A stretch of DNA of 64,000 nt, from assembly GCA_964576865.1 (NCBI GenBank), contig CAZNVK010000001.1, forward strand, positions 50,697 through 114,696, read 5' to 3'. Below are positions 6,658 through 61,397 of this stretch, in pieces. The position numbers and the translations under genes were made by a program. The notes under the pieces are model-generated. The model was not told where the DNA came from. It was given only the letters and a program-made list of their open reading frames with translations, and made no database searches. Positions within the stretch are counted from its first letter, which is position 1. Each line of letters opens with the position of its first letter. Source of the stretch: an uncultured Candidatus Poseidoniales archaeon (GTDB taxonomy: Archaea; Thermoplasmatota; Poseidoniia; Poseidoniales; Thalassarchaeaceae).

Positions 6658-9600
6658 ATGTCCAGACGAGGTCATATCATGCGACGCAAGCAGACCGCGT
6701 TCTTTGTCACACTGCTAATCCTCAGCAGTCTCGTCTTCGTCTCCCAAACCAGACCACAGGCTCCGGTTTCCTCGATAGACCCCCCAGACGTCCCCGGACA
6801 AGGCCCGATGGCTGTTGACCAAGATGAGGACCTCATCCCGGATATACACGAGGTGATATTCGGCGAAACCCGCCATATCGAGACGCCATTCGGGATAATC
6901 GCCGTCAACGGGTTAGACCCGATGAACGGGTCGGACAATATCACCGATTTCGACCGGGATGGGGCGAGCGCCCTGATGGAGTATTGTTGGCCATGGACCC
7001 TCGACACCTGTTTCACCGAACGACTCTCGCTAACCGGAAAAGCTCCCGACGAAACCGAATCAGGGTTCAGAGAATATCTCGACCCGCGCGAATCCGATAC
7101 AGATGGCGACGGACTGCCGGACGGATTCGAGATTTACATGTGCACCGAAGGCGGTGCAGGCTACCAGAATCAGGCCACGAGCGAGTGGACTTGTCTCTAT
7201 TTCGACCCGCTCGACAGCTCCGATCAATTCGAAGATGCCGACCTGTGCGTTGAACAGGCGAGCCAGTGGGGTTGCGGAGATGGTTTCGATGTTGACCGGG
7301 ATGGCGAGATTGACCTTGGCGAGCGCTACACGAATACCGAGGAATACTGGTTCGGCGCACCCGAGGGCTGGTTGACCGAGCGCGATGGACTCTGGTGCGC
7401 TGGAAAGATTGCAAATCTCCACGCCGATGCCTGTCAAACCGAGGTCGAGCGACCGACAGGTGACGATGGCTGGTTGGGCAGCGACCCTAGGCGCATCGAT
7501 TCAGACCACTACACATGGAGCGAGTTGATTCCGACCAGTCTAGCGGTTCCAGGCGACGGGATTCCCGATGGCTGGGAGGCTTACCACGGCCTCGACCCGC
7601 GAAATGCCAGCGATGCTGTACTGGACAGCGATTCCGACGGTTGGGATATCGACCGTGACGGATTCATCATCCCAGATTCATCCATTGCAACCGCTCGCTG
7701 GGGCGAGGCATTCAGCAATTACGAAGAGTATCTAGTTCACCTCGACAGCGGAAATTGGGTCCGTCCCGGATTACGCGCTTCGATGCTTGCGATGAATAAT
7801 GGGTATAGCGGGACGGCTGGCGAAGTGATGTTATTCGACCAAGGCACCGATCCTCAACTGGTCGATGGTCGCGTCCACACTGTAATTTCGGATCAGGGAC
7901 GCGACCGTTTGATTATTGGGTCGGCTTATGGGATCACGACGATCGATCCCTTCGAGGGCACATCGACCACCTTCGAGTTGCCCTCGGGAATGGAAATGTT
8001 CACGATGATGAGGTGGACGCCTTCCTCGGATGATTACCTCATCATCGGCACGAACCACGGCCTGCACGCTCTAGAGATGGAGAACGGCCTGCCACAGATG
8101 GACACACTCACCGAGTCGAACCTCGGCATGGTGAAGGTGCTCGAGCGCCTTCAGACCGGCAGTGGTGACTTAGACCTCATCGTGCTTGGCCACGGCGCCA
8201 ATGTCTGGACGGTCACACTCTCTGAACCCGCATCGGGCCGTGGCACACCTGATTTCACCGAGCCGATTGCAATCGAGCCACTCTCAGACTTGGTCGCTGA
8301 GGCCGATGCCTCGCTGACCGAGGTCATACATGTGCCGATGGCGGGACGCGGTCCAATGATGATCATCGGTACCGACCGCGGAATGATCCGTTGGGATACT
8401 ACTGATGGAACCCCTTCAATCGGTCAGCCATTCTGGATTTACACCACTGAGACGGCCGAGGATTACGTTCAGTTCGCAGACTTACTCAATTCATCGAAAT
8501 CTGCAGTCGTCAATGTGATGGAGCTCGCCGGCCCGATAGCGACCGATGGCTCGCTCGAAGAGGTCACAGGCGTATGGCTTGGAACGCCTGGCGGACTCCA
8601 CCTGATAGACTTGGACCTCTTCGTCGGCCTGCCAGAGCAGGCCTTTGCAACAGACCGAATGTTCAACGTCGAGCGGTGGGAGGAAGGCGCTAACGATATC
8701 CGCTCGATCCTCGCCCTCGAAAACACCGTTCTTCTCGGCTCACGAGACGGCACTTGGGCGCTCGAGGGCGGCTCGCACGGCATCCTCGGAATCGTCGACA
8801 ATCAAACCAGGATGCCGGGCCTCGCAACATCACTCACAACCTTCGTCAACGATGGCGAGAAGTACCTCTTCGCCGGAGTCTCGCCCGGTCAATACATGAA
8901 CATCATGCCGATCGATCCGCAATCATCCGATTCAGACCTCGACGGCATGCCCGACGGCTGGGAATTCGCCTACGGACTCGACCCGACGGACCCCTTCGAT
9001 CGAGTCCGCGACGCCGACGCTGACGGAGTTCACTTTGACATCGGCGGCGTCGGCTTCAGCCGAGAATGGTCCAACCTCGACGAATATCGCTTCGTCAACA
9101 CCAGCGTCGGCGGCTTCAACGGAACCGACCCACGAAACACCGACACAGACGGCGACGGCCTCACCGACGGCGAGGAGTACTGGGGTTGGTTCGCCGACTC
9201 GACAGAATTCGCCTGCCACTACCTCAACGAGGAATACATCTGCGATGAGGAAGATGGGGAGGCGGCGCTGGACGTTCACCTCTCAGGCTGGTTGAACTCT
9301 GGCGCCGGTGGAGGCACAGATGGGCCAACCGACCCGACCAGCGCTGATAGCGACGGTGACGGCATGCCCGACGGCTGGGAAATCGAGCACCGTCGCTGGA
9401 TAGGCGACGTATACACAGGAGGCAACTTGTGGACCCTCGACCCACGTGACCCGAGCGACGCGACCATGGACGCGGACGGCGATGGCCTCGACAACCTGTG
9501 CGAGTACATGTGGGGCAACCTCCTCGAAACCGCCCTCGTCGAAGGCCTCCCAACCCACGGCGAAAATGCCAGCGCAGCGCAGAATTGGACCAAGACGGAC

Positions 9601-12429
9601 CCGAACAATCCCGATTCGGACGGAGACTCACTACCCGATGGCTGGGAGGCCCGCTACCAGTGCACATGGGGCCGGAATAATCAGGGAATCAATCCGCTGA
9701 ATGGCTCGGACGCACTAAACAACCCCGACGGTGACGGATTTGACGTCAATCACGACGGCGTCCTCGACCTCAACGAAAGCCTCGTGAACTGGCTCGAATA
9801 CCACCTCAAGGACCAGATAATACACTCCGATACGACCGATACCGGACTGGAATTCCCCGAGAATTTCACGACCCTGCTTGCTCACGAGTCATGGGTCGGC
9901 TTCGCCGGCGCCTCCTTTGGATTGCATACGAGCCTGGCTTATCGTAGTCTGATCAATGGCTCGACCGCTGATGATGTCGGCGCCGCCAACCCACTGGAAG
10001 CCGACTCCGACCGCGATGGTATTCCTGATGGTTGGGAATTCTACCATGCGCGGTGGAGTCTGTACGATGAGGGTTGGACACTCAACCCCGTCGATGAGCG
10101 CGACCAAGTCGGCGATCCCGACGGGGATGGAATGAACAATTGGGAGGAATACAATGTCATAAGCGGCAATATGAGTGAGATCGACGATCTCACGACCGTG
10201 CCGCAATTCTACCTCTTGCAGGTCGGCGGCGAACTGCTCGCAACACCTTGGCTATCAGCCGAATCCACACTCTCATTCGGCACCTTCCTTGCCCCTGAGC
10301 AAATCGCCTTGCAGGGGTATACCGCCGACCCGAACGAGCCCGACACCGACGGTGACGGGCTGCTCGATGGAATCGAATTGATGTTCACCCGCTGGAATGC
10401 CAGCGACGAGGTCTGGACCCTCAATCCGCTGGTCCCCGGCGACGGCAATTACGACTCGGACCGCGACGGAATCACCGACCTCGTCGAACTCAATCTCACA
10501 AATAAGAACCCACAGAACGGCGGACTGTCACCGCCCGACGCTCCCCGTCTGTGGGAAGAAGCCGAATCGCTCGACCCGGACGAGGCGGTCAACCGCGTCT
10601 ATCGCATCCTCTTCAACAAGGAAGGACGCGCCGAAATCGCCCTCGAGCAATTCGATGCTTGGCAGCTCGGAGAGCCCGCCAAGCCACTCCTGCAAGCCCT
10701 GCTCGGAATCACCGACCCGAATGCCGAGGATACCGATAGGGACGGCATGAGTGACGGATACGAGTACTGGTTCACCGAATGGGACCTCGAAGCCAATCTG
10801 TGGACGATGAATCCGCTCACAGACACAGACATCCATGCCGATAGCGACGAGGACTCATTCGACTGCGACGGAGACGGCTACATCTCAGACTCGGAGTCCT
10901 ACGATAACCTGGCGGAATACGATGCACGAGTCTACGGCAAGCGCTCGGCCATCGACACCATTCCCAACGGCACCGGCCTAGTCTCGTACGGACTCGACAC
11001 GGTGACGGCATTCATGCAGGAACGCAGCATGTCCGAGCAAGCAGCTCAAGACCAACTCTGGGTGATGTTCTCGGGCAAGGATATCGTCTCCAGTGACCGG
11101 GCAGGCCTGATCAACACAATCGATCCGGACAACTTCAATTTCAGTCTCGCCGGAGTCTCAGACCCGACCCACGCAGACTCCGATTCAGACGGCCTGCCCG
11201 ACGGCTGGGAATTCTGCTACTCGATCTACGGCCAGTGGCTACCGGTCAACGAATACCGCTGGTCACTCAACCCTCTCAACCCACTGGACATCGAGTACGA
11301 CCCAGACGCCGACGGCTGGTACGACCGCACCATCTTTGACCAACCCGCGACCCAAGGCGCTTGGGAGAATCGCGAATTCACCTCAGGACCAGCCGCCGAC
11401 CAGATTTTTCCGGCACCAACAGCCCTCTACTTCACCAATTTGATGGAGTACAATAACGGCACTCACCCACTAGACGGAGATAGCGACGACGACTCTCAGA
11501 TAATGGAGGTCAGCAGAAGCGGCGGAAACGTCGTCAGCTACGACCAGAATATGAATCTCTCAGACGGTCGTGAAGTGTTCAAGTACGGAACGAATCCGCT
11601 TGACAACGACACAGACGGCGACATGATGCCCGACTTCTACGAGTATTACAGAGGTTGGAATGAGACCAATGACAATTGGTCATCCTACCTACAGATCTCA
11701 GTCGTCTGGTACCAAGTGACGCCGAGCGTCCTCAAGCCGGTCACCGTCAACGGTGGCACCATCGGACGCCCACTACTCGAATGGACTTGGTTCACCCATG
11801 ATGCGACCGACCCCAGTGATGCAGGGCAGGATGCGGACAATGACGGAGGGTGGGACTGCACGGGAGGCAATTGCGTCTACATACCCTACAATAACTTCCA
11901 GGAATACTACGGCGTGGTCAATGCGACCCTTGCTTCCCCCTCTCTGGTCAGACAGGCCAATCTCTACGATTGCTCGGGTAATATCGTGCAGGAATGGTGG
12001 CAATTGCGCGAGTCGCTGCTCGGCACATGTGGCGGGATCGCAGCGCTCGAGACCAATTACTTCCGAATGTACAAGGTGAATAACAACGATATGCTCTACG
12101 CTTACATCGTTGACGACCACGATACCGATTACCAATTGCTCGATGAGACGGATGACGAAGTGCTGGTCAACGGTGCTTGGGCGGATATGTACCAGCGATT
12201 CGCTGGAGACCGCTACCACTACCCGAATACCGGCTTAGGCGAGTATGTCTGGGGATGGTGGATGATCGATATCGATGGTGATCAGATCGCAGACGGTACC
12301 GATCCGACGAATTGGGATACCGACGGCGATTGGCTGAACGATCACTTCGAGATTGAAGATGATATGCTCGACGGCGTGCGTGGTAACTCTGGTTCGCCGA
12401 TTCGCTATGATGATCGCACGACCGAATGA
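6658..12429 (+). CDS. Giant secreted acidic protein with many thrombospondin type 3-like calcium-binding repeats (1923 aa)
   Basis: N-terminal signal-peptide-like hydrophobic segment (FFVTLLILSSLVFVSQT). More than 15 copies of Dx(D/N)xDGxxDGWE-type motifs (DSDGDGMPDGWE, DTDGDGLTDGEEY, DSDSDGLPDGWEF). Extremely D/E-rich. One uninterrupted 5.8 kb ORF. Confidence 0.8.
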   Translation: MSRRGHIMRRKQTAFFVTLLILSSLVFVSQTRPQAPVSSIDPPDVPGQGPMAVDQDEDLIPDIHEVIFGETRHIETPFGIIAVNGLDPMNGSDNITDFDRDGASALMEYCWPWTLDTCFTERLSLTGKAPDETESGFREYLDPRESDTDGDGLPDGFEIYMCTEGGAGYQNQATSEWTCLYFDPLDSSDQFEDADLCVEQASQWGCGDGFDVDRDGEIDLGERYTNTEEYWFGAPEGWLTERDGLWCAGKIANLHADACQTEVERPTGDDGWLGSDPRRIDSDHYTWSELIPTSLAVPGDGIPDGWEAYHGLDPRNASDAVLDSDSDGWDIDRDGFIIPDSSIATARWGEAFSNYEEYLVHLDSGNWVRPGLRASMLAMNNGYSGTAGEVMLFDQGTDPQLVDGRVHTVISDQGRDRLIIGSAYGITTIDPFEGTSTTFELPSGMEMFTMMRWTPSSDDYLIIGTNHGLHALEMENGLPQMDTLTESNLGMVKVLERLQTGSGDLDLIVLGHGANVWTVTLSEPASGRGTPDFTEPIAIEPLSDLVAEADASLTEVIHVPMAGRGPMMIIGTDRGMIRWDTTDGTPSIGQPFWIYTTETAEDYVQFADLLNSSKSAVVNVMELAGPIATDGSLEEVTGVWLGTPGGLHLIDLDLFVGLPEQAFATDRMFNVERWEEGANDIRSILALENTVLLGSRDGTWALEGGSHGILGIVDNQTRMPGLATSLTTFVNDGEKYLFAGVSPGQYMNIMPIDPQSSDSDLDGMPDGWEFAYGLDPTDPFDRVRDADADGVHFDIGGVGFSREWSNLDEYRFVNTSVGGFNGTDPRNTDTDGDGLTDGEEYWGWFADSTEFACHYLNEEYICDEEDGEAALDVHLSGWLNSGAGGGTDGPTDPTSADSDGDGMPDGWEIEHRRWIGDVYTGGNLWTLDPRDPSDATMDADGDGLDNLCEYMWGNLLETALVEGLPTHGENASAAQNWTKTDPNNPDSDGDSLPDGWEARYQCTWGRNNQGINPLNGSDALNNPDGDGFDVNHDGVLDLNESLVNWLEYHLKDQIIHSDTTDTGLEFPENFTTLLAHESWVGFAGASFGLHTSLAYRSLINGSTADDVGAANPLEADSDRDGIPDGWEFYHARWSLYDEGWTLNPVDERDQVGDPDGDGMNNWEEYNVISGNMSEIDDLTTVPQFYLLQVGGELLATPWLSAESTLSFGTFLAPEQIALQGYTADPNEPDTDGDGLLDGIELMFTRWNASDEVWTLNPLVPGDGNYDSDRDGITDLVELNLTNKNPQNGGLSPPDAPRLWEEAESLDPDEAVNRVYRILFNKEGRAEIALEQFDAWQLGEPAKPLLQALLGITDPNAEDTDRDGMSDGYEYWFTEWDLEANLWTMNPLTDTDIHADSDEDSFDCDGDGYISDSESYDNLAEYDARVYGKRSAIDTIPNGTGLVSYGLDTVTAFMQERSMSEQAAQDQLWVMFSGKDIVSSDRAGLINTIDPDNFNFSLAGVSDPTHADSDSDGLPDGWEFCYSIYGQWLPVNEYRWSLNPLNPLDIEYDPDADGWYDRTIFDQPATQGAWENREFTSGPAADQIFPAPTALYFTNLMEYNNGTHPLDGDSDDDSQIMEVSRSGGNVVSYDQNMNLSDGREVFKYGTNPLDNDTDGDMMPDFYEYYRGWNETNDNWSSYLQISVVWYQVTPSVLKPVTVNGGTIGRPLLEWTWFTHDATDPSDAGQDADNDGGWDCTGGNCVYIPYNNFQEYYGVVNATLASPSLVRQANLYDCSGNIVQEWWQLRESLLGTCGGIAALETNYFRMYKVNNNDMLYAYIVDDHDTDYQLLDETDDEVLVNGAWADMYQRFAGDRYHYPNTGLGEYVWGWWMIDIDGDQIADGTDPTNWDTDGDWLNDHFEIEDDMLDGVRGNSGSPIRYDDRTTE

Positions 12430-35958: not shown

Positions 35959-36042
35959 GCATAGAACGTTGGGAATAACCTGAATTGACCTATGGTCAAT
36001 CAACATCAACGGTCAAAAGCCCCTCAAGGGTCCGAGGAACTC

Positions 36043-39000
36043 ATGAATGACCGCCGCATGGTTCTCTTGACCCTTGTCATGCTCATGCTGAGCGGTTGGT
36101 CAGCCGGTCTCGTGACAGCCACCTCAAACGATGAGGTTAATGCGCCGCAGCACATCGGTTCTGAGGCCGCTACCTCCGACTTCATGTCATTCTCAAATGT
36201 CGATGAATCGACTCATGAGTTGCGTTCTAATAGCGGATTAATCCACTCTCCCTTCGGCTCGTTCGACCCATTGGAACAGCCGTTGCCCATCGGACCTGAG
36301 AATATCTACGATCCAGCAGCTCTCGAGAGAACCCGTTTCGCCCTCGTCCAATCGACTTCGGCAGACCTCACGCAACTGTATTTCGCTCTCGGCGAGTTCG
36401 GGGTAAATAGTATCGAGACCGTTCCTGACGACACATTCCTGATTCAAATCCCCCGCAATCTCGATGCACGGCAGACCCTCGCCGATTTGAGAGAATCCGA
36501 GTATGTCCGATGGGCTGGCGAATTACCGATATCTTGGAGGGTTAGTCCAGCCATAGCTGCGATTGCTGGCCGACAAGCGGTCACAGTAGATCTCGACCTC
36601 ACCCCTACACCAGGGTTGAGCAGCGTCGAACTCGAATCGCTATCCCAAGACCTTCTTTCGATATCCGGAGAAGTTGGTCCTCGGTCGATCTGCGATGCTC
36701 ACCTCTGCCAGCCCAAGGCTGTCAATGCGATCTGGATTCCTATTCTTGCGATGGATGGCCGCATTCTCCATCTCCACGAGTCATCGCGCTTGACTATCCA
36801 CAATTCCGTCGCCAGCCAAATTGCTGGAATCAGCCAGGCCTTAGTCGACTCCGCTAACACACTCAATGGAAGTGGCGAGGTCCTCGCAATCTCAGACACA
36901 GGGCTAGACGCGGATCACGGTGACTTTGACGGACGCGTGCGAGGAATTTACCACCAATTCGGGCCTGACAATTCGGCACTGGACCGTAACTCCGGTCACG
37001 GAACACACGTTGCCGCAACCCTTCTTGGTGATGGTTCCGGCGATATCTCGGCTCTCGGAATGGTTCCTGCGGCGACATTCCACTTCTACCAACTAGAGGT
37101 CGATTCATCCGGCATCATGGCCCGATGGGGATCACTCTACGATATGTTCAGCCACTCTTGGCAGAATTCTGCTCGCATCCAAACCAATTCGTGGGGTAAT
37201 GAGAATTTGGTAGGAGAATACAGTTCAGATTCCCGCTCTGCAGATGCATTCATCGTCGATAATCCGCGCTTCTTAGTTCTCTTCTCGGCTGGAGACCTCG
37301 GTGCCGACGGTCCTAGCACTATCACTCCGCCAGGCACCGCCAAGAATGTCTTGACGGTTGGTGCGTCGACCACTGGCTCTGAAGGTTCCGATCCAGCTGG
37401 CGACGTCCCGGACTTCTCTTCAATGGGCGCCACCCTCGACGGTCGAATCAAACCAGATCTTGTTGCACCGGGAGTCCTGCTCTGCTCAGCACAAGCCGAA
37501 GAAGCCCAGAGTCCTGATGGGGAGTCCTGCACCAGTGCCACACACGATGACGGCTCGACCCCACTGTACATGTCACTGAATGGCTCCTCGATGGCAACAG
37601 CCGTTGCCGCAGGCGGAGCGACGATGCTTCGACAACACCTTCGAACCGAGCAGGGAATCACTGAACCGCGCTCAGACCTAATCAAGGCGATTCTCATCAA
37701 CTCGGCTAACGACATAGGAAGCGCGGACATTCCCAATGCAGCAGAAGGCTGGGGCCAGATTGATGTCGCTAATGCAATCCAGCCCCGCGAGTCGGGAACA
37801 GACCTCAATCTGCTCTATGACGATTCCAGACAACTTGAACCCGGCCATAGTTTCGTCTACACCTTCGACGTGGACAACTCAGCCGGCCTCGATGTGACAC
37901 TTGTTTGGGTTGATTCTGAATCATCAACCATCTCCAATCAAAGCGCTGCCAAATTGGTCAACGATCTCGATTTAACAGCGACTTCACCTGATGGCACGGA
38001 ATATCTCGGTAATGTCTTCGCCAGTGGACAGTCAACGGCCGGCGGCTCCGCTGACCGATTAAATAATGTCGAACGAGTCAGTATCCCGGCCGGCAACGGT
38101 GGCATGTGGACGATCACAATCGGCCACGCTGGAGGTCTGACGCAATCATTCGCCCTCGTCGCAACTGGTCTTCTGCAAGAGGAGACCACCGCTGATCTCA
38201 CCGTATTCGAAGGCTCACTTTCGACATCCATCCTCGCTCCTCTACAAGGCGACACAGTTCTTGTCGAAGCCGCTTGGAGAAATCAGGCCGCCAAGGCCAG
38301 TGGCGCTTATACAGTCGAAATAGAGGACCTGACTGAGGGAACGATTCTATACACCTCAAACCGCAATTCGCTAGCCGGCGGAGCCTCAGCCTCCCTATCC
38401 TTCCCCCATGTCTTCCAAACGACTGGCGAACATATTCTCGAGTTGAGGCTCGACACCGGGGACGACGTCATTGAACTTAATGACGAGAATACCGGTGTCG
38501 ACAATAATCGCTACCAGTTGACTGTACAAATCTCCCAGATAGGTGTCAGAATTACCCCCCTTATGGAAGACGGTTCAATCCCACAAACCCCTGTGGATCT
38601 AGCCCAAGCGATGACCCGAACCCTCGACCCGAGCACTGGTAGCATAATCATCTATGATTTCATTCTCCAGAACGAGGGAACCTCGCCAATCAGCGTCGGC
38701 CTCTCGGTAACCCCTCTGCAACGAATTGATGATCAGGGAATCCTTCAAGCACCGAGGGATGAGTGGTGGAAATTACTCAACGAGACAGGTCCATGGGACC
38801 TAGCAGAGGGAGGGAATGAAGGAGATTCGACTCGAGTTACACTAACTCTTGAGGACGTTGACGCCGACCTGACCGACCCGACGGGAGCACGCTACGCTCT
38901 TCCCGGTACCTTCGTCAACGATCTGAATCTCTTCGACAAGAATGCACCGACGGTCTCTCATACTATTCGTGTGACCTCGACCGTCGAGCGCATCGAAGGA

Positions 39001-40830
39001 CTGTACACAATCCTTGCCGGAACGGGTGATGATCTGGGCGCGAAACCCGGAAAGACAGCGACGTTCTCTCTCTCGATTCGAAATACCGGAAATGGTGATA
39101 CTCAGTACTCGGTATCGTGTTCAAGCCCTGAGCAATGGATTATCCACGTCGGTTCGAGCCAATCCTCCTCTATGGTACTCGACCCGCTCAGTCGGCTGCA
39201 ATTCCTACCTCTGCCGATTCACGTGCGCGTTCCTGACACAGAGAACGGCCAACCTGCGGCAGGGACAACAGAAGATGTGACGTGTGTGACCACATCGGTG
39301 CAGGATCCCAGTGTGACGGCGACCGATGTGGCGACCGTGAACGTATTCGAGAGTTATGATTTCACGGTCGACCTAATCGATGATGGTGGCGTTGTGCTGG
39401 GGGCATTGGCTCTTGCGGAGGATAGGGCAGTTCTGAATGGGGACCTATCGGAGACGACAGTACTCGTGACTAACGCAGGAAATCTCCCGATGGATTTCTC
39501 GATGACAATCAGTTCCTCTCTCAACACTTGGAATGCACAATTGGTTCTAGGTGACGAGCAGACGACCGGCGCTCTGGAATTTTCGATACAAGCCGGAGAT
39601 AGCACGACAATTACCGTTCAAATGATGGTTCCTCTCAACGCTGAGATGGACACGAGGAATACACTGACTCTCCGCACTACATTGGTCGGGGGCGAGATGG
39701 TAACCAATGGAACGCGATTCATCGTACAGGAGATTGCTGCCCTAGAGGCCTCTGAAGGCGATTCGATTGCAGTCTCTCTCGGTCAGACTGGGACAGCGGA
39801 TGTCTGGGTGCGCAATGCTGGAAATGTTCCTCTTACACTTACCTGGAGTATCGGCAGCCTGCCTCATGGGTGGGTGGGTGGATTCCAATCCATCATCCCT
39901 ACCTCATTGGAGATGAACAGAGAGGCTTTGGTCACAGTCGGGCTGGATGTCCCTGGCAATCTGCCCGTTGGGATCAGCACCGGCATGGTGCCCGTCATCG
40001 TTGAAGCGGTCACGCCGGGCTCCGAGACGGTGACTCACACGTTTGAATTGGAAGTGGAGATTTTACCCTCAGTTTGGGCCTATCTGACTCCTGATGAGAT
40101 TTCGCTGAATGATATCGCAACAGAGGGTGATGGCATCTTTACAATCACTGTTGAGAATCTAGGAAATTCTAATTCGGGATTCACCTTTGAGGTGGGTGAG
40201 GTTGATTATTGGTCTTTCGAGGTTGATCCTGTCTCTGTTGAGATGATTCCAGCAGGAGGTTCGGTCGAAATTACAGTAAAGGCCACTCCAACTCCGTCTG
40301 CTGCTCTCGGGCTGACGAGTTTTATCCTATATGCTAATTCAACCGATGACGGGACGAGCAACTCGGTGACGAATTCCGAGCTCGTCCTCGAGGTCTCTCG
40401 CGCGCGAGATGACTCATGCAGCGGAATCGGTTGTCTGATGGTCAAACTCGGTTTGCCAAAGTGGGCTCTCGCCCTCGTCTTCCTATTCGTCCTCGCTGGC
40501 GTCGGCGTGGTGATGGTGCGAATGCGACGTGAATCCGAGGCTGCGATGAGTCCAGATGAGGAATTGATACCGTTAGGGTCGGCTCTCCATTCCGGATCTC
40601 AGGGCGAACGTCGAGCCATGGCTTTGGAGACCAGTTCGGCCGGTGAGGTTCTCAGTAAGGCTGTTAGTTCTGATGAGATCTCGGATGTTCTCGCCTCAAG
40701 CATGCCCTCTCTCTCCTTACCACCGGTTCCACCTGGCGCAATGCCACTTCCTCCGAGTGGTTTACCCGAGGGTTGGACAATGGACCAATGGGTCGCCTAC
40801 GGTCATATTTGGCATGAGCAGAACAAGTGA
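36043..40830 (+). CDS. Giant membrane-anchored subtilisin-like serine protease (peptidase S8) with multiple beta-rich C-terminal domains
   Basis: Signal peptide [22 protein letters not shown]8 catalytic triad contexts AISDTGLD (Asp), HGTHVAATL (His), [13 protein letters not shown] (Ser). About 1000 aa of repeated beta-domains, then [20 protein letters not shown] and a cytoplasmic tail. Confidence 0.8.
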
Positions 40831-54850: not shown

Positions 54851-55180
54851 TCAGGATTCAGGGTCTTTGACCTTATCGTAGTCTGAAGAATTATTTTCGA
54901 TTTCCTCGGGTTCATCTCCACCCTGAATTGTTTCCATACCAACAATCTCGTAATTCGAGGGGAATAATGCAACAGCAACTCCTCCAACAATTGCTGCCAA
55001 TCCGAGATAGAATTGTTGTTGCACCATGATGAGTTCAAGCCCAATCGCAACCAGCAGCAATCCACCGAGATTTGAAATCCAGACGAGATTCTTGAAGGTC
55101 CCAAGAGAGACGCCAGTCGAATTCTCAGTCCTCTTCGGCCCGAACTCAGCGCCGAATCTCACAGGGTCATCCTTTGCCAT
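54851..55180 (-). CDS. Small membrane protein (109 aa, two TM helices, acidic C-terminus)
   Basis: Hydrophobic segments LGGLLLVAIGLELIMV and LGLAAIVGGVAVALF. Confidence 0.4.
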   Translation of the reverse strand: MAKDDPVRFGAEFGPKRTENSTGVSLGTFKNLVWISNLGGLLLVAIGLELIMVQQQFYLGLAAIVGGVAVALFPSNYEIVGMETIQGGDEPEEIENNSSDYDKVKDPES

Positions 55181-55184
55181 TCAA

Positions 55185-55517
55185 TCACCTATCAATCATG
55201 ATAATCGCGTCCGTCGGGCAGGCGAGGACGCAGAGTTTGCAGCCGGTGCATGGGTCACGTAGGACGCGGGCTTTGCGGTTGACGTCGACATCCATAATCG
55301 GGCTGGCCATCGGAGTATCGTAGAGTTCGATGGCATCGTCATCGCAGACAATAGTGCACTGGTCACAGCCGATGCACAATTCCTCCTTCACCCAAGCGAC
55401 CGCTTCCTCGCCGCCCTTGAGTTTGGCTCGCTCCTCCGCGCGCATGGCATTCATCACCATGCGAATGCGACGTTGCTCGCGCGCGCGGCGAGCAGCGAGG
55501 TCAGGGATATCGGTCAT
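55185..55517 (-). CDS. 2x[4Fe-4S] ferredoxin with basic N-terminal extension
   Basis: CIGCDQCTIVC and CTGCKLCVLACP cluster motifs. Confidence 0.75.
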   Translation of the reverse strand: MTDIPDLAARRAREQRRIRMVMNAMRAEERAKLKGGEEAVAWVKEELCIGCDQCTIVCDDDAIELYDTPMASPIMDVDVNRKARVLRDPCTGCKLCVLACPTDAIIMIDR

Positions 55518-55608
55518 CCGAATCGATGCTGCCGGCCGGTCCTTCTCAAGCCTACGGTCGGCTTTGGTTCGAATTTACATCCCGTTGAAGAACAGGTGAG
55601 CTTGGGTT

Positions 55609-58386
55609 TCACTGGCGCTTTGCATCGATTTGGCGCGCCAAGAAGGAGACGACGTCGAGGATTTCGAAGTCGTGTCGCGGATCGCCTTCGAACTTCAGGC
55701 ACTCGAAGTGACTGACGCACTTCGGGCAGCTGGTCAGCATGATGTCCGCGCCCGTCGCCTTCACCTCATCGAAGCGCTCGAGGCGCAGGGTGCGACTATT
55801 CTCATTGCACGACATCATGCTCGAAACACCGCAGCAAAGGGCATCTTCGCCGGAGTGCTCCATCTCAACAAGGTCCACTCCGTCGACCGCGCGAACGAGG
55901 TCGCGCGGCTCATCATAGATATTCATCTGACGACCGAGCCGACAAGGATCGTGGTAGGTCACAGTGACGTCTTCAGGTGTGGCGAGGTCCATGTCGAAAC
56001 CGTTTTCGATCAGGAATTCAGTCGTGTGCATGACCTTCATGTCATCGAGTTCGTAATCCATCGCAAAGGTTCGGAAGCACTCAGCGCATGAGGTCACGAG
56101 GGTATCGATTCCGCTCTCTCCGAGCTTCTTCTGATTGTATGCCTTCAGCTTCTCGAAGACTTCCGTCATTCCTTGCCACTTCTGGTCGTGTCCGCAGCAC
56201 TTGAGGAAGTCTCGTCCGAGGTATGTGACGTCCTTGTTCATCTCGTCGAAGATAGTGAAAGCGGCTGTCGTGGTCTCTCCGAGGTTCATTTCTCCCTCGT
56301 TGACATGGCTGAAAATCATCTCTTGGTCGATGTAGTCAACGCAGCCTGGGTAGTAACCAACGCTACTGTCTATCGGGTACTGCTCCACCGGAATGAACTC
56401 CGCGTCGGCGTCCTCTTCAGCCTCTGCCGCGAGGACGGCTTGGAGGAGAGTGTGTGGTATTTCGGCGGCTGGAGGGCCGCCGACCATCAGGTTGCGGCGA
56501 ATGTCGACGTATGAGTCGTAATCGACTAGCTGCGGGCAAGCGTTCGTGCAAGCGGTGCAGGTCAGACAGGAGTATAGTGGAACCCCGTCATCTTCGTTAT
56601 TCCAGGTGTTGTAGATGATGTTGAGTTTGTCACCTGCATTGAATAGACGAACTGGGCAGGCGTCGTCGCACAGGTCGCAGCCGTAGCACTTGTTCATCTC
56701 CCACTCATAGCCTCGTGCCATGCTGCGCATCAGCATGTAGACGATTGCTCCTACTCCGAGACAAGGAATGAACATCGAGTAGGTCAGCTTGGCGTCGAGG
56801 CTCTTTGGGTTCTTCTTGTAGGTTGGATTGTCGAAGGTCATCGCCTCGAGGTCGGTTCCGGAGGGGAGGTTGTCACGTAGGGGTGTGGCGCCTGTTGCGT
56901 CCAGGAGCAGGGGCTGGAAGGCGGTGGCTGAGAAGTCGGTGATCATCGTCACCGTCTCATTAACACCACTCGAGGTGACACTGTACTTCAGATTGTAATT
57001 GCCTGGTGCTAGCTTGAGAGTCGTACTGTCGCACTCACCATCCGCTGACCACAGGACCTTTCCTGCGTCGTTGCTGATGCTGAGTGCTTGTGAATGGCTA
57101 CCAGCTGCCCGGACTGTTGTGCGGAAGTTGCAGCCGATGTCGACGAAGACCGAGGAGAGTCCGAGGTCTTCGATGTGCATAACATCGGACCAACTCTGGC
57201 TAATCTCGCTCAAATCTGAAGTTCCCTCGTATTCGATGGCTTGTCCGGCCGCGTTGCGACCGCTATCCATATCGGCGTGGCCGTTGACTCCCTCGAAGTC
57301 GATGACTACCGATTGAGTCGGTTGGAAGATTCCCCAATTCGACCAATGTTCTGCAGGTAAGGCACACCACCTCGCGGGGTCTTCATTTTCGTCTAAAGTA
57401 CTCCAGACCCCGAGGTCGGAAGATTCTGTGAAGGTCATGCAGAGGTCTCCCCACTCGTCCCAATCATCGCCTTTGGCGTCGTAGACGAGTGTATCGGCGG
57501 GCTGGCCACGCATGTCTTCGAGATCTTCGATCTCATCCATAGCACCCAGTCCGCCGTAATCCCAGAAGCCTCCCTCGTAGATTGGCCAGGTAACAGCTGA
57601 AATCATCACAGCGAGAATGAGGGAGCCAATCGCGACTTGCTTACCCATCGCAGGTGTAAGTCGCGCGCCGATGGAATTCACCAAGAACCATCTGACTGCG
57701 AAGAATAACACGGCGAAGATGAAGATTCCAGTGAGGATCCACGGCACAGCATTGAACACTTCAGCAGTCCACGGTGCCTGTCTACCACAATCTAGGACAT
57801 GCTTTGAGTTCGCCCAACAATAATCTGTTCGATCTTTGGCATATAATTCAAGGAAGATATTGATTGAAAATACAGAGATGAACCAGACGTGGGCGAGGTA
57901 GACCGCACCAGCAGTTGCGAACCAAGGGTCCTCGACAGGCCTCTTCTCGCGCCCACCCAAGAACGGCGGAAGCGCGAGTATACCGACTGGTATTCCAGTC
58001 AGGAAGGCACCCCACCATGCAGCGTTCCACGAGATTACCGGGGCACCCAAGAAGTCGCCTATCGGGCCGGCTGGAAGCACGAATTGCGGCAAATATTCGC
58101 CCCATCGCAGATATCCATACGAGAATAGAACATACCAGTCAGGGAATACGAAGCCGGCCTGTGCAAACGGGTCCGCCGCGCTGTGCAGCGGCGGCGGAAT
58201 CAACCAGCAATAGAAAGCAAGAACCATCATCATGGCTGCAAAGATGATCGAATCGCGAAGCACTTCCGTCGGCCAAAAAGCGTGCCCGACAAAGACTCGC
58301 TTGCGCTCGTGCTCCGCTTCAAGCAGCGTACTCTTCTCTCGGACGTAAGTATCCGCAATCCGCCCGAATCTATCGATCATTCCCAT
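55609..58386 (-). CDS. Fusion protein: cytochrome b C-terminal (subunit IV-like) membrane domain + extracytoplasmic domain + TM helix + cytoplasmic HdrD/DsrK/GlpC-like module (2x[4Fe-4S] + two CCG domains)
   Basis: N-terminal FVFPDWYVLFSYGYLRW matches the PEWY motif of the cytochrome b C-terminal domain / SUIV, with several TM helices. Residues ~250-520 are an acidic soluble region, followed by TM LTYSMFIPCLGVGAIVYMLM. Then CYGCDLCDDACP and CLTCTACTNACP. Then two CCG domains (C...KCCGHD...CAEC and C...LCCGVS...CPKC). Confidence 0.7.
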   Translation of the reverse strand: MGMIDRFGRIADTYVREKSTLLEAEHERKRVFVGHAFWPTEVLRDSIIFAAMMMVLAFYCWLIPPPLHSAADPFAQAGFVFPDWYVLFSYGYLRWGEYLPQFVLPAGPIGDFLGAPVISWNAAWWGAFLTGIPVGILALPPFLGGREKRPVEDPWFATAGAVYLAHVWFISVFSINIFLELYAKDRTDYCWANSKHVLDCGRQAPWTAEVFNAVPWILTGIFIFAVLFFAVRWFLVNSIGARLTPAMGKQVAIGSLILAVMISAVTWPIYEGGFWDYGGLGAMDEIEDLEDMRGQPADTLVYDAKGDDWDEWGDLCMTFTESSDLGVWSTLDENEDPARWCALPAEHWSNWGIFQPTQSVVIDFEGVNGHADMDSGRNAAGQAIEYEGTSDLSEISQSWSDVMHIEDLGLSSVFVDIGCNFRTTVRAAGSHSQALSISNDAGKVLWSADGECDSTTLKLAPGNYNLKYSVTSSGVNETVTMITDFSATAFQPLLLDATGATPLRDNLPSGTDLEAMTFDNPTYKKNPKSLDAKLTYSMFIPCLGVGAIVYMLMRSMARGYEWEMNKCYGCDLCDDACPVRLFNAGDKLNIIYNTWNNEDDGVPLYSCLTCTACTNACPQLVDYDSYVDIRRNLMVGGPPAAEIPHTLLQAVLAAEAEEDADAEFIPVEQYPIDSSVGYYPGCVDYIDQEMIFSHVNEGEMNLGETTTAAFTIFDEMNKDVTYLGRDFLKCCGHDQKWQGMTEVFEKLKAYNQKKLGESGIDTLVTSCAECFRTFAMDYELDDMKVMHTTEFLIENGFDMDLATPEDVTVTYHDPCRLGRQMNIYDEPRDLVRAVDGVDLVEMEHSGEDALCCGVSSMMSCNENSRTLRLERFDEVKATGADIMLTSCPKCVSHFECLKFEGDPRHDFEILDVVSFLARQIDAKRQ

Positions 58387-58401
58387 GTCAAAGACCTCCG
58401 A

Positions 58402-59271
58402 TCAGTGCGGCTCCGCAATACCTTGCACCCAGACGATGAATAAATGCGCCAGAATCAGCGCCGTCACGACGACGGGCAGAATGAATACGTGCAGGAAATA
58501 CATACGCGTAACCGTCTGTCCGGAGAGCGATGTTCCCGCGAACATCGCGGTCGCGACCCACCCTCCGATGAGGGGGGTCGAGTTCGCCATGTTGATTCCG
58601 ATTGTAGCGGCTCCGAAAGCCAAACTATCCCAAGGCAGGAGGTAGCCCGAGTAACCGAAGAAGATAGTGAAGAACATCAGGGCGACGCCGATTAGCCAGT
58701 TGAGCTCGCGGGGGTTTCGGTATGCGCCAGTGAAGTACACGCGACACATGTGAAGGAAGACAGCGGCCACCATGAAGTGCGTCGTCCAGTGGTGTATCGA
58801 GCGGATGATGTAGCCGAATGGAAGCTGAGTCATGATGAACTCCATCGATGAATAGGCAGGGGTTGGGTCGCCTTCTCCTCCCGGCACGTAATAGAGTCCG
58901 AGGACCGTGCCGGTGATGACGAGAATCACGAAGGCGAGGAAGGAGATTCCACCCAAGCAGTAGAGTGGATACCAATACCAAATGATTCGCAGTTTATACT
59001 TCTCAGCGTGCGTAAGAGGCATTTGTCGGTGCACGCTGTAGTACGCATCCCGGCTCATGCCCCAGTAATCTTGGATGCGAAAGCGCGTGTCGAGCCACGA
59101 GAATGCCCAGAGGAAGGATTTCTCCGCCAAGCCCATGCTGCCAGCGCTCGTCTCGACCGCTCGAAGGATATCCTTGCGGGGCATTTCGTCCCGCTCCTTG
59201 CGCAGAGTGAAAGCGACGAGGACGACGACGAGGGCGATGAAGAGCCAAAGGAACCAGAATTGCAGCATCAT
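58402..59271 (-). CDS. petB: Cytochrome b, N-terminal heme-binding domain (b6-like, split cytochrome b)
   Basis: Heme-ligand histidines in RSIHHWTTHFMVAAVFLHMCRVYFTGAY and RMYFLHVFILPVVVTALILAHLFIV. Four TM helices. GYSGYLLPWDSLAFGAATIG matches the conserved cytochrome b cd-loop. Confidence 0.85.
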   Translation of the reverse strand: MMLQFWFLWLFIALVVVLVAFTLRKERDEMPRKDILRAVETSAGSMGLAEKSFLWAFSWLDTRFRIQDYWGMSRDAYYSVHRQMPLTHAEKYKLRIIWYWYPLYCLGGISFLAFVILVITGTVLGLYYVPGGEGDPTPAYSSMEFIMTQLPFGYIIRSIHHWTTHFMVAAVFLHMCRVYFTGAYRNPRELNWLIGVALMFFTIFFGYSGYLLPWDSLAFGAATIGINMANSTPLIGGWVATAMFAGTSLSGQTVTRMYFLHVFILPVVVTALILAHLFIVWVQGIAEPH

Positions 59272-59277
59272 CTCACC

Positions 59278-60132
59278 TCAGTCGCAGTATGTGTACCAAT
59301 CTTTGAAGTCCGGCAGTGCTTCAATGGTATCGCCCGTGATGACCCACGGGATGAGTGGTAGTCCGACCGGAGCAGGACCTCCGGTTCGGCGGATGCCGAA
59401 GTAATCGAATTCCGCTCCGGTCGAGCGGTTTCGACTTCGATTCTTCTCGATCGCGGTCGGGTCAAATCGGCTCGAGTGACAGATGCAGAACAATTTGTTC
59501 CCACCCGCGTCGACAGCGCCCGGCGTCCATTGGTCATTGGTGAAATCGTTCTGGACCAATTGCCAGCCGGGGATGCAGCATAGGTGGGTGCAGCGAGAGA
59601 ATATGACAATCAGATTGTCGTGGATCGAGAGCGACGCATAGTCGGGATTCTCATCCATCTCGTATCCGCTACCGACGTACTTTCCACTCTCGGTGTAGCC
59701 GTCCATGAATTGGAAGCGGGGTGAGTTGGTACTCGGAGCCGAGGTCGCGTTCTCGGCGTGTGGGACGTAGACGACATTGACCGGCAGTCCGGACCAGACG
59801 CCTTGAGCACCAGACATACCGGTCGGGCTGGCCTCGGCAGCGGCGACGAAAGCTGAGTATGACATTGGCTCGAGGTGTCGGTCACCATACCAAGCTGAGT
59901 CCTCAGCACCGGTAGGTACCCAGAAACGGACGGCGGTGTCGCCGCTCGAGGAATCGGCTGTTCCCATCAGAAGAGAAGCGAAGCCGATGCTGCCGAGGCT
60001 AGCCATGGTGATGACTCCCGCCGCGGTGTTGAATGAATAACGCATGAACTCGCGGCGGTCGATGACGGGATTTGATTGAGAAACCTCGTCATCGGCTCCA
60101 GGAAGTGGACGTAGTCGGAATCTTCGCGCCAT
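59278..60132 (-). CDS. petA: Rieske [2Fe-2S] iron-sulfur protein with twin-arginine signal
   Basis: Tat-like DRREFMRYS followed by a hydrophobic anchor. Rieske boxes CTHLCC and CICHSS. 284 aa. Confidence 0.8.
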   Translation of the reverse strand: MARRFRLRPLPGADDEVSQSNPVIDRREFMRYSFNTAAGVITMASLGSIGFASLLMGTADSSSGDTAVRFWVPTGAEDSAWYGDRHLEPMSYSAFVAAAEASPTGMSGAQGVWSGLPVNVVYVPHAENATSAPSTNSPRFQFMDGYTESGKYVGSGYEMDENPDYASLSIHDNLIVIFSRCTHLCCIPGWQLVQNDFTNDQWTPGAVDAGGNKLFCICHSSRFDPTAIEKNRSRNRSTGAEFDYFGIRRTGGPAPVGLPLIPWVITGDTIEALPDFKDWYTYCD

Positions 60133-60135
60133 GAA

Positions 60136-60585
60136 TCACACCTCGTATTGTTGCCATCCTTCTGTGTCATTAGGAGTGATGTACTTGTTCCGCCTATGTT
60201 TGACGACTACCACATCTGGCATGACGAATCTCAGGTAGACGATTCCCATCAAGATGACCGTCAGCAGCGTCATCGCCAAATGGAACGATAGACGCTGCTG
60301 GTCCCAGTGGTTGAACAATCCGTAAGAGAGAGTTCCAGCCCAGAACAGGGTCCAGAGGATTCCCCAGAGTGCGAATACGACGACGAGGGCGGATTCGCCG
60401 GAAGGCGAGAGGCTGGCGCGGACGATAGTACCGGCTTCGGGTTCGTTGAAGACTCCATGGTCAACCGCTGCGATGTAATTTTCCTCGCTCAGGTCAACTC
60501 CGGTTAACGCATCGCGTGCGTCCTCAACACTTACTTTGCCAGACTTGACCTCGCGCAGGAGTTTCATAACGACGTCGTCTTTCAC
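60136..60585 (-). CDS. Small membrane protein with N-terminal soluble helical domain and two TM helices
   Basis: TMs LVVVFALWGILWTLFWAG and LAMTLLTVILMGIVYL. Overlaps the next gene by 4 nt, consistent with an operon. Confidence 0.45.
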   Translation of the reverse strand: MKDDVVMKLLREVKSGKVSVEDARDALTGVDLSEENYIAAVDHGVFNEPEAGTIVRASLSPSGESALVVVFALWGILWTLFWAGTLSYGLFNHWDQQRLSFHLAMTLLTVILMGIVYLRFVMPDVVVVKHRRNKYITPNDTEGWQQYEV

Positions 60586-61397
60586 AGTTGGTCACCCCTT
60601 CGTAGATGCTTGATGCGCAATTTGAGTAGGTTGCTTCGGCCTTCGTAGTGACGGGAAAATCCGTAGCGTAGGAAGAGTCCGCAAAAGAGGATGACGAGAA
60701 TCACTGCGCCGAAGCCGAGCAGCCCAAGCCAGTGGGCTCGCAGGGCAGCTCCCATATGATGCAGGTCGATGTGGGTTTCCGCTGGCGCGGGAGGCTCGAT
60801 CTCTCCGTTTCCGCTGAAGATTGTCCGACTATTGCCGTTATCGGTTCCCTCGTCGACCGAGGTTGTCAGACGATTCCAGCGGTCGAGGTCAGAGGGTGCG
60901 TGGTCACCGTTGACAGCGTTTCCTGAGAGAGAAATGGTGACTACGCCGGTGCCTTCTGACGGGGCCGTCCAGATGATGAGCCAAGTCCTGTCGGCGGTTG
61001 AGCCGCCAGAGCCAGCATGGGTCAGGCTGGTAGAATCGCCCTCCCAGTTCTGGACTTGGCTCTCGTAGCCTTCGCCGCCGGCGAGTGAGCCTGCACTGAC
61101 TCGCAGTGCGAATCCTCCGGTGGTTGATTGAGTGTCGATTTCAGGGCCACCGATAAGTTGGATCTTCATGGCGTATGTCGTGCCTGCACTGTAATGGTAA
61201 GGTACACCGTCGAGGATGACGGTGACTGAATTATCTGGCAGTTCCGAATGGCAGGTGCATCCTGCCAGTGCTACGTCTCCCTCGTCATCCTCGTCCCCTC
61301 CGATGCCGGTGGAGTAGGCTTGGCTTGAACCTGCGAGAAGAAGAGCGAAACAAGCCAGTACGAGTAGCCTTTGCGAGGTCGAGTGATGCGTCTTCAT
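60582..61397 (-). CDS. Secreted membrane-anchored protein of the Rieske/cyt b cluster (signal peptide, beta-rich domain with CxCH, C-terminal TM)
   Basis: Signal LLVLACFALLLAGSSQA. C-terminal TM LGLLGFGAVILVILFCGLFL. Start set at MKTHHS; the ORF extends to 61445. Confidence 0.5.
   Translation of the reverse strand: MKTHHSTSQRLLVLACFALLLAGSSQAYSTGIGGDEDDEGDVALAGCTCHSELPDNSVTVILDGVPYHYSAGTTYAMKIQLIGGPEIDTQSTTGGFALRVSAGSLAGGEGYESQVQNWEGDSTSLTHAGSGGSTADRTWLIIWTAPSEGTGVVTISLSGNAVNGDHAPSDLDRWNRLTTSVDEGTDNGNSRTIFSGNGEIEPPAPAETHIDLHHMGAALRAHWLGLLGFGAVILVILFCGLFLRYGFSRHYEGRSNLLKLRIKHLRRGDQL

Follow-up and report, generated by a model that had tools for sequence, protein, structure and literature searches.

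A PetD homologue fused to a heterodisulfide reductase-like iron-sulfur module in a Rieske/cytochrome b operon of Marine Group II archaea

We describe an operon in a 64,000-nucleotide (nt) stretch of contig CAZNVK010000001.1 (hereafter the window) from an uncultured Candidatus Poseidoniales archaeon, and interpret it with moderate confidence as complex III of a Marine Group II (MGII, Poseidoniales) archaeon, namely a menaquinol-type, b6-like Rieske/cytochrome b complex. Its central feature is a 925-amino-acid (aa) protein in which a PetD homologue continues into a module resembling HdrD. The parts are known, as b6-type complexes and as HdrD/EtfD-type modules on membrane cytochromes; what is apparently new is a PetD that covalently carries an Hdr-like iron-sulfur (Fe-S) module on the negative (n) side of the membrane. 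The function that we favor, and regard as about evenly balanced in probability, is that of an inner-side wire that would connect the haem bH/cn-quinone site with ferredoxin-type carriers in the cytoplasm and bring electrons into the complex.

The operon is closely spaced, with overlaps or gaps of 3-15 nt between its open reading frames (ORFs) except for a 91-nt gap ahead of the ferredoxin gene, and is made up as follows (TM, transmembrane; Tat, twin-arginine translocation).

54851-61397, minus strand: whole operon, seven tightly packed ORFs
60582-61397, minus strand: secreted GCxCH protein, 271 aa, with a C-terminal TM anchor (NCBIfam choice_anch_V, 5.8e-24)
60136-60585, minus strand: DUF7318-like two-TM protein, 149 aa (Pfam DUF7318, 1.3e-5, below the cut-off)
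59278-60132, minus strand: Tat-targeted Rieske [2Fe-2S] protein, 284 aa (motifs; TIGR01416 sub-threshold)
58402-59271, minus strand: split cytochrome b, b6 type, 289 aa (PF00033, 1.4e-41)
55609-58386, minus strand: PetD-Fe-S/CCG fusion protein, 925 aa (profiles, motifs and fold)
55185-55517, minus strand: 2x[4Fe-4S] ferredoxin, 110 aa (Fer4_21, 1.4e-12)
54851-55180, minus strand: two-TM protein, 109 aa, the seventh operon gene (weak DUF7322 match)

A preliminary description of this region, made from the sequence alone, had counted seven genes within 55185-61397. That range holds six, all of them present on the minus strand in the order claimed, and the seventh begins 4 nt past the stop codon of the ferredoxin gene.

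The fusion protein joins a PetD domain to an HdrC/HdrB-like module

Four parts can be distinguished in the fusion protein.

57658-58386, minus strand: PetD/cytochrome b C-terminal domain, residues 1-243, with four TM helices (E-H), PDWY at 82-85 and a Qi-type R44-D45 pair
56722-57657, minus strand: TM hairpin and acidic periplasmic beta-sandwich (~250 aa), residues 244-555, an MGII-specific insert
56437-56721, minus strand: HdrC-like 2x[4Fe-4S] dicluster on the cytoplasmic side, residues 556-650 (Fer4_8/Fer4_9, ~5e-7)
55609-56436, minus strand: HdrB-like double-CCG module, residues 651-925, with two complete CCG motifs

The order proposed in the preliminary description (a subunit IV-like domain with PDWY, an acidic domain of ~250 aa, an extra TM helix, then 2x[4Fe-4S] plus two CCG domains) was borne out by profiles, motif conservation and a structure model alike. 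The motifs lie at 82 (PDWY), 567 and 607 (CxxCxxCxxxCP), and 730 and 851 (CCG), and residues 281-535 form the acidic region, with 44 Asp and Glu against 14 Lys and Arg. Six hydrophobic helices (at 42, 126, 161, 213, 247 and 534) were found by hydropathy, and the same number of TM helices was obtained with an alignment-based AlphaFold2 model (predicted local distance difference test [pLDDT], 72.4); this model was used throughout, as single-sequence AlphaFold2 reached a pLDDT of only 39.6. Since the N-terminus is basic and the Fe-S domain lacks an export signal, both ends of the protein are predicted to be inside. The PetD domain has four helices, E to H, as in bc1-type cytochrome b, which likewise places the fused module in the cytoplasm.

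Direct Pfam searches recognized the C-terminal part readily (CCG, 2.5e-23; Fer4_8/Fer4_9 as listed), but not the membrane domain: Cytochrom_B_C had no direct match to the 925-aa ORF even at E values up to 10, and scanning the first 281 aa or the middle 281 aa at that setting was uninformative. The homology of the N-terminal domain was therefore established through its relatives and their profiles. An exhaustive search with residues 1-560 against 1.84 billion representatives returned only 134 relatives, and PF00032 (Cytochrom_B_C) was matched by 27 of the 34 non-fragment distant relatives of the N-terminal domain. The relatives' profile in turn matched the C-terminal half of Rhodobacter cytochrome b (3.7e-18) and subunit IV of cytochrome b6f (2.6e-12). 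A PxWY Qo-type motif was present in all 34 (PDWY in 31), with P82, W84 and Y85 invariant, and R44-D45 of the fusion family aligned with a Rhodobacter K-D pair, which we take to be K251/D252 of the Qi site. Residues 1-243 are thus a PetD/cytochrome b C-terminal homologue that is visible only by profile and fold. The proposal had been made to depend on CCG and Cytochrom_B_C matches in this ORF; the former, together with Fer4, were found directly, whereas the latter failed as a direct match and proved real at the level of the relatives and their profile.

Conservation was then assessed over 61 homologues with identities down to 33%. P82, D83 and W84 were invariant, and Y85 was kept in 59 sequences, which agrees with a Qo motif. 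Of the 18 cluster cysteines, 17 were invariant, including the cubane-motif residues C567/570/573/577 and C607/610/613/617, and C731 occurred in 59/61; H733, E769, H812, C860, H893 and C896 were invariant as well. With its two complete CCG motifs, the HdrB-like module is predicted to bind two noncubane [4Fe-4S] clusters. Its closest solved structures are Mycobacterium smegmatis EtfD and HdrB, and LutA matched with a TM-score of 0.78. In the databases, homologues are annotated as "(Fe-S)-binding protein" or "heterodisulfide reductase subunit D."

The fusion is a genuine gene

The preliminary description had named a frameshift or an internal stop as evidence that the 925-aa ORF might be two genes. 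Among the matches listed, at least 120 fusion clusters (formed at 90% identity) from many independent marine contigs have lengths of 891-929 aa and 85-91% identity, with 100% coverage in almost every case. A further 38 MGII sequences that are more divergent (908-969 aa; 63-74% identity) also keep a single ORF with the same domain order. These full-length homologues rule out a frameshift or misassembly. The CCG part is truly a separate gene in loci of the Marine Group III (MGIII) type, as a joining of two genes by sequencing or assembly error might lead one to expect, but there the split falls between the dicluster and the CCG part and not between PetD and the Fe-S part, so that an artefact has practically no probability left. 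Judged by its conservation, the fusion is genuine and under selection. Three MGII homologues (P0309, P0328 and P0348) are longer, at 1334-1349 aa, and contain a periplasmic insert of ~680 aa between the same two TM helices.

The PetD-dicluster core is shared across several archaeal lineages

A search for the same fusion and gene order in other archaeal genomes, as the preliminary description had suggested, found both in MGII and in other Thermoplasmatota, and a split form in MGIII-type loci. Three MGII loci of other clades have the same operon, with the ferredoxin gene, the small membrane gene and Ogt all included. In other Thermoplasmatota and in one Geothermarchaeales metagenome-assembled genome (MAG), the fusions are shorter (543-713 aa), have no periplasmic insert and show precomputed matches to PF00032, Fer4 and CCG. 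In 18 MGIII-type and 3 Thermoplasmata loci, a PetD plus dicluster protein (~340-450 aa) adjoins a separate, translationally coupled CCG gene (~290-340 aa), and one Halobacteria MAG has PetD and dicluster only, without CCG. Plain PetD proteins accompanied by the operon were found in Hydrothermarchaeota and several Thermoplasmatales.

All fusions, that of the window included, have in common a junction/dicluster motif, YExxxNxCYxC...LN(L/I)(V/I)YNT...DGV...CLTC, which argues for a single origin of the PetD-dicluster fusion. From these comparisons, the common core of the family is PetD plus a dicluster on the predicted n side, and its variable elements are the CCG part and the MGII insert. The gene order is kept as well: periplasmic protein, DUF7318, Rieske protein, cytochrome b, PetD-Fe-S protein and cytoplasmic Fe-S partner.

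The remaining membrane subunits include a b6-type cytochrome b

The Rieske protein gave no match in a Pfam scan and only a sub-threshold one to NCBIfam TIGR01416 (9.2e-12). It nevertheless has both cluster boxes of a Rieske subunit, C181-T-H183-L-C-C186 (CTHLCC) and C215-I-C217-H218-S-S (CICHSS), as well as an RREF twin-arginine motif followed by a TM anchor at residues 38-56, which together point to export to the positive (p) side.

Cytochrome b found its best PDB matches among cytochrome b6 chains (8.8e-42). Its haem histidines are His160/174 and His261/276, with the b6-type spacing in helix D (14 residues between), and all four are kept in related Fe-S-fusion and PetD-only loci (L001-L038, L085 and L086; related loci are cited by L number). 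Its LYCLGG segment (C105) aligns with FYCIGG of b6, which holds the haem-cn cysteine (b6 Cys35). Scores stayed below the curated NCBIfam cut-offs, at 195.5 bits versus 325 for b6 (PRK03735) and 211 versus 290 for ExtP. Cytochrome b is clearly of the b6 type, the CxGG motif for haem cn (treated in PMC5600118) is present, and haem binding is predicted. Of 30 distinct Fe-S-fusion loci, 16 have a cysteine at this position, and the three MGII loci examined are all among them; the seven PetD-only loci all lack it.

Two further features of cytochrome b were observed. At its N-terminus, the MGII protein is extended by ~100 aa relative to cytochrome b6, and the added stretch includes a further TM helix at residues 5-23. 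In two Thermoplasmata relatives (L001:898-3174 and L086:6343-8973), the N-terminal part of cytochrome b reaches 758-876 aa and bears a Big_5 immunoglobulin (Ig)-like periplasmic domain; periplasmic beta-sandwich additions therefore recur on different subunits of this complex family.

The DUF7318-like protein has BLASTP homologues in most related loci, and DUF7318 genes hold the same position in the contig of L001, in L004 and in L086; by this conservation, it counts as a small subunit in archaeal Rieske/cytochrome b operons of this type. The 109-aa two-TM protein is a probable seventh subunit. Its slot is occupied by ORFs of 100-106 aa in the MGII loci L087 and L088, and its BLASTP homologues follow the ferredoxin gene in the MGIII-type loci L018 and L024. 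In the window, the 109-aa gene is translationally coupled to the ferredoxin gene.

A GCxCH protein occupies the periplasmic slot

No protein of the window operon contains CxxCH, and a dedicated c-type cytochrome (c1, f or a fused c) that could serve as the Rieske acceptor was not found there. The first gene encodes a protein with a signal-like helix (residues 11-29), CTCH at residues 47-50 and a TM helix at 224-242; as it has only GCxCH, we rejected it as a c-type cytochrome. G46, C47, C49, H50 and H127 were invariant in 13 orthologues. Homologue searches returned only unannotated Poseidoniales/Thermoplasmatota proteins, and similarity to known folds is of a weak reeler/DOMON-like kind, the profile giving just a weak reeler-domain match against the PDB (E 0.6). 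The GCxCH protein fills the first-gene slot in MGII, in MGIII-type loci and in L031, whose version has Cx7CH in place of GCxCH, and a Reeler-like 499-aa protein stands beside the fusion of L001. In the relatives L002 and L004, the same slot holds c-type cytochromes, and on this ground the GCxCH protein is probably the periplasmic electron acceptor of the Rieske protein. It may represent a new kind of periplasmic redox carrier.

The cytoplasmic partner varies among lineages

The 110-aa ferredoxin has a basic N-terminal helix and no TM helix. In the MGII loci L087 and L088, its gene directly follows the fusion gene; in L085, it is close by but on the other strand. Against TIGR01944 (rnfB), it scored 47.9 bits versus a cut-off of 68.7, over the dicluster part only; with this sub-threshold score and no membrane anchor, it was rejected as a true RnfB. 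An orphan RnfB has been reported for MGII, in which RnfACDEG are absent (PMC6336850), and the window ferredoxin is probably the protein so reported.

In the family at large, every downstream slot is occupied by a cytoplasmic electron-transfer protein, the type of which varies by lineage.

MGII, L022 and L023: small ferredoxin
MGIII-type loci: polyferredoxin, or flavodoxin plus dicluster protein
L016:8936-9925: Flavodoxin_1 plus dicluster fusion protein
L086: polyferredoxin plus FlpD protein
L026:8756-12020: two HdrA-like flavoproteins plus FlpD (Qmo-like)

Extra HdrC/HdrB-like genes are carried by L002. The variable Fe-S and flavin partners that relatives keep in one slot strongly suggest a wiring of the complex to a redox partner in the cytoplasm, as had been proposed. 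GshA (glutamate-cysteine ligase, PF08886) is encoded near the operon, at a distance of 2-4 genes, in three loci of MGII (L085:12339-13547, L087:9707-10939 and L088:8962-10197), and was not linked to the operon in the window itself. From this proximity, MGII may make gamma-glutamylcysteine, which could serve as a thiol substrate.

Electron input through the Fe-S module is favored over output

In the mechanism that we favor, the Fe-S module would lie under the n-side face of cytochrome b. Electrons from a cytoplasmic donor would pass through the co-encoded ferredoxin to the CCG clusters, the cubane clusters and haem cn/bH, which would reduce menaquinone at Qi; ferredoxin-dependent oxidoreductases could feed in as other donors through the same ferredoxin. 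Quinol would be oxidized at the PDWY Qo site, with one electron going to the Rieske protein, the GCxCH protein and a terminal oxidase. The module would then act like mycobacterial EtfD, with the whole Q-cycle complex as its membrane anchor, and the arrangement would amount to a hard-wired form of the route from ferredoxin to haem cn that has long been proposed for cytochrome b6f (PMC5600118).

An exchange of electrons between this chain and haem bH/cn is suggested because the module is tied exclusively to the PetD of such operons, because the junction is conserved, and because of the distribution of the haem-cn cysteine. Input is favored since MGII are aerobic heterotrophs, in which complex III has been called "MGII-specific" (PMC6336850), since the Qi determinants are kept, since the Halobacteria form does without CCG, and since EtfD, the nearest structural relative, is itself an input wire that leads electrons through CCG clusters, cubane clusters and haem b to menaquinone. 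The closest solved relative being the EtfD of an aerobe, input is at least as likely as disulfide output.

Several points weigh against this interpretation. Sequence does not tell in which direction electrons flow, the proximity of the module to haem bH/cn is one that we infer, and dicluster residues 567-647 were modelled at a pLDDT below 50. In 14 MGIII-type loci (L008-L017, L019-L021 and L024), a serine replaces the haem-cn cysteine (FYSLGG) while the Fe-S module is kept, and the same holds for L003; haem cn is therefore not essential to the coupling. The cysteine is retained in the MGIII-type loci L018, L028, L029 and L037 and in the three MGII loci examined, which suggests a loss of haem cn inside MGIII without loss of the Fe-S module. 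None of the ten cysteines of the two CCG motifs is missing, a trait of the disulfide-reducing HdrB/HdrD, and the EtfD substitutions are absent, C731 aligning with EtfD T539 and the invariant E769 with EtfD H583, so that the module may carry out thiol/disulfide chemistry. Finally, the L026 operon includes Qmo/HdrA-like flavoproteins, which in known systems take electrons from the membrane.

The last points lead to the strongest rival, an output or bifurcation in which menaquinol oxidized at Qo would deliver one electron to the Rieske protein and the oxidase and the second, through bL and bH (cn), to the Fe-S module and on to a disulfide or ferredoxin. We consider this possible at a clearly lower level of confidence. 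The substrate could be a low-molecular-weight thiol disulfide, e.g., bis-gamma-glutamylcystine, or a protein disulfide, which would make the complex an analogue of HdrDE, DsrMK or Qmo that is driven by the Rieske branch. Besides the complete CCG motifs, the rival draws on the relatives with extra HdrC/HdrB-like genes (L002) or HdrA-like proteins plus FlpD (L026), as in Qmo/Hdr systems, and on the GshA genes near three MGII operons. PDWY is, moreover, typical of low-potential menaquinol systems, in which bH lies near thiol/disulfide potentials. On the other hand, GshA is unlinked in the window, the Qi residues and the haem-cn cysteine are retained, which would be needless if Qi were bypassed, and the Halobacteria variant without CCG argues against disulfide chemistry as the family's core function. 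As aerobic heterotrophs (PMC6336850), MGII and MGIII should already obtain surplus reduced ferredoxin from their catabolism, and solvent-exposed noncubane clusters are expected to be oxygen-sensitive (PMC13083937). We are somewhat more doubtful still of quinol-based bifurcation in the strict sense, in which an O2-linked Rieske branch would pull and the Hdr-like module would make a low-potential cytoplasmic reductant (reduced ferredoxin or thiol). If such bifurcation were real, archaea that rank among the most abundant in the surface ocean would possess a Rieske-driven heterodisulfide-type reductase.

It is unlikely that the PetD helices merely anchor or co-localize an Hdr-like module that works independently, as a dehydrogenase-type or quinone-reducing enzyme comparable to GlpC, SdhE, LutA or GlcF. 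Several CCG proteins of the GlpC, LdhH, GlcF and LutA type do work without a haem partner, these four appeared as sub-threshold or fold matches of the module (LutA at the TM-score given above), and the proximity of module and haem is a prediction. Yet the dicluster is joined to helix H through a conserved junction in every lineage, no anchor other than the PetD of a Rieske/cytochrome b operon occurs as its partner, the few N-terminal relatives (134 in 1.84 billion) carry PxWY in all 34 non-fragment cases analysed, and the haem-cn cysteine is confined to Fe-S-fusion loci. A regulatory or assembly role, in which the module would sense cytoplasmic redox state or oxygen and gate the complex, is very improbable: Fe-S domains serve as sensors elsewhere, which is no direct point in its favor here, whereas a four-cluster chain with a dedicated ferredoxin (in relatives, flavodoxin, polyferredoxin or HdrA) has the anatomy of an electron wire.

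Comparison with known complexes

The preliminary description had likened the complex to HdrDE or DsrMK rather than to a classical bc complex. This likeness did not hold: every classical element is kept, namely the Rieske protein, the four haem histidines, the b6 spacing, the CxGG cysteine, PDWY, the Qi-type R-D pair and a periplasmic partner, and the Hdr-like module is an addition. With the b6f and Firmicute b6c complexes, the operon shares the Rieske protein, a four-helix cytochrome b with four histidines, b6 spacing and CxGG, and a separate PetD-like Qo subunit. Unlike in those complexes, the window PetD has a fourth helix, as in bc1, so that the fused redox module is placed in the cytoplasm and not in the periplasm; there is no gene for cytochrome f, c1 or c, a GCxCH reeler-like protein taking the slot; the Qo motif is PDWY; and DUF7318-like and DUF7322-like proteins are extra subunits. 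Bacillus QcrC consists of subunit IV plus cytochrome c, and subunit IV is thus a fusion platform there too.

The mycobacterial EtfD (Rv0338c family; PDB 9ojn), an electron transfer flavoprotein (ETF):menaquinone oxidoreductase, resembles the fusion in combining, in one polypeptide of an aerobe, a haem-containing membrane domain with a 2x[4Fe-4S] plus 2xCCG wire. Its anchor, however, is a five-helix single-haem domain unrelated to PetD; its Thr539 and His583, the counterparts of Cys731 and Glu769 in the window, give a linear [3Fe-4S] and a non-catalytic noncubane cluster; and no ETF genes are linked to the window operon. The fusion is accordingly not a member of the EtfD family.

With HdrD, the fusion shares two CxxCxxCxxxCP and two CCG motifs with their ten cysteines. 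HdrDE, DsrMK(JOP) and TmcBC use a NarI-type dihaem cytochrome b, whereas the window has a bc-type cytochrome b with Rieske protein and Qo site and a covalent link to PetD, and organisms of its type are aerobes without known coenzyme M/coenzyme B or DsrC chemistry. No dsr genes are present in the window operon. The curated HdrD-like equivalogs TfrB, LdhH, GlpC, GlcF, TmcB and DsrK were all rejected, as scores lay far under the cut-offs: the best, TfrB, reached 110.5 bits versus 385, and the DsrK and TmcB models gave 30-33 bits versus cut-offs of 400-735 (DsrK, 29.9 versus 400).

In QmoABC, QmoC is an HdrC-like dicluster fused to an HdrE-like cytochrome b, and the membrane partner in the window belongs to a different family. 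The L026 operon adds two HdrA-like flavoproteins and FlpD in the manner of QmoA/B, whereas MGII have only a small ferredoxin and no HdrA-like subunits. The anammox bacterium Kuenenia reportedly has Rieske/cytochrome b complexes with NAD(P) oxidoreductase-like subunits (de Almeida et al., 2016), proposed to link the low-potential chain to a cytoplasmic redox partner; these are bacterial and use separate FAD/NAD(P) subunits and multihaem cytochromes, with no CCG module and no PetD fusion.

A description of a PetD-Fe-S/CCG fusion was not found in the openly searchable full-text literature, which leaves most subscription journals outside reach, and mention of it is also missing from two open surveys of Rieske/cytochrome b phylogeny; within the range of open full text, the earlier impression of an undescribed architecture is upheld.

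Genomic setting

The operon is flanked by archaeal housekeeping genes (tRNA synthetases, carboxyltransferase, MeaB, Ogt and an FtsZ-like gene), and close homologues are labelled Poseidoniales, Candidatus Thalassarchaeum or Thermoplasmatota, which assigns the window to an MGII archaeon. Elsewhere in the window lie two very large ORFs, of 1923 aa (6658-12429, plus strand) and 1612 aa (35992-40830, plus strand). A neighboring 1002-aa ORF (29-3037) has a bacterial Ig domain, and the two may therefore be surface proteins.

Implications for MGII archaea

MGII are among the most abundant planktonic archaea and are still uncultured. Surveys of the group record cytochrome b and Rieske proteins but no canonical bc1, plus an orphan RnfB (PMC6336850). 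The operon described here offers an explanation for both puzzles, the non-canonical complex III and the orphan "RnfB." It represents a family-wide design found in MGII, MGIII-type archaea and other Thermoplasmatota, with a reduced form in one Halobacteria MAG, in which the inner face of a Q-cycle complex would be physically joined to cytoplasmic Fe-S carriers. Taken together, these features make the family a genetically fixed test case for whether haem cn/Qi of b6-type complexes takes electrons from ferredoxin, and likewise for whether a Rieske/cytochrome b complex couples quinol oxidation to low-potential cytoplasmic chemistry. The answer bears on the modelled respiratory energy yield of a major group of ocean heterotrophs.

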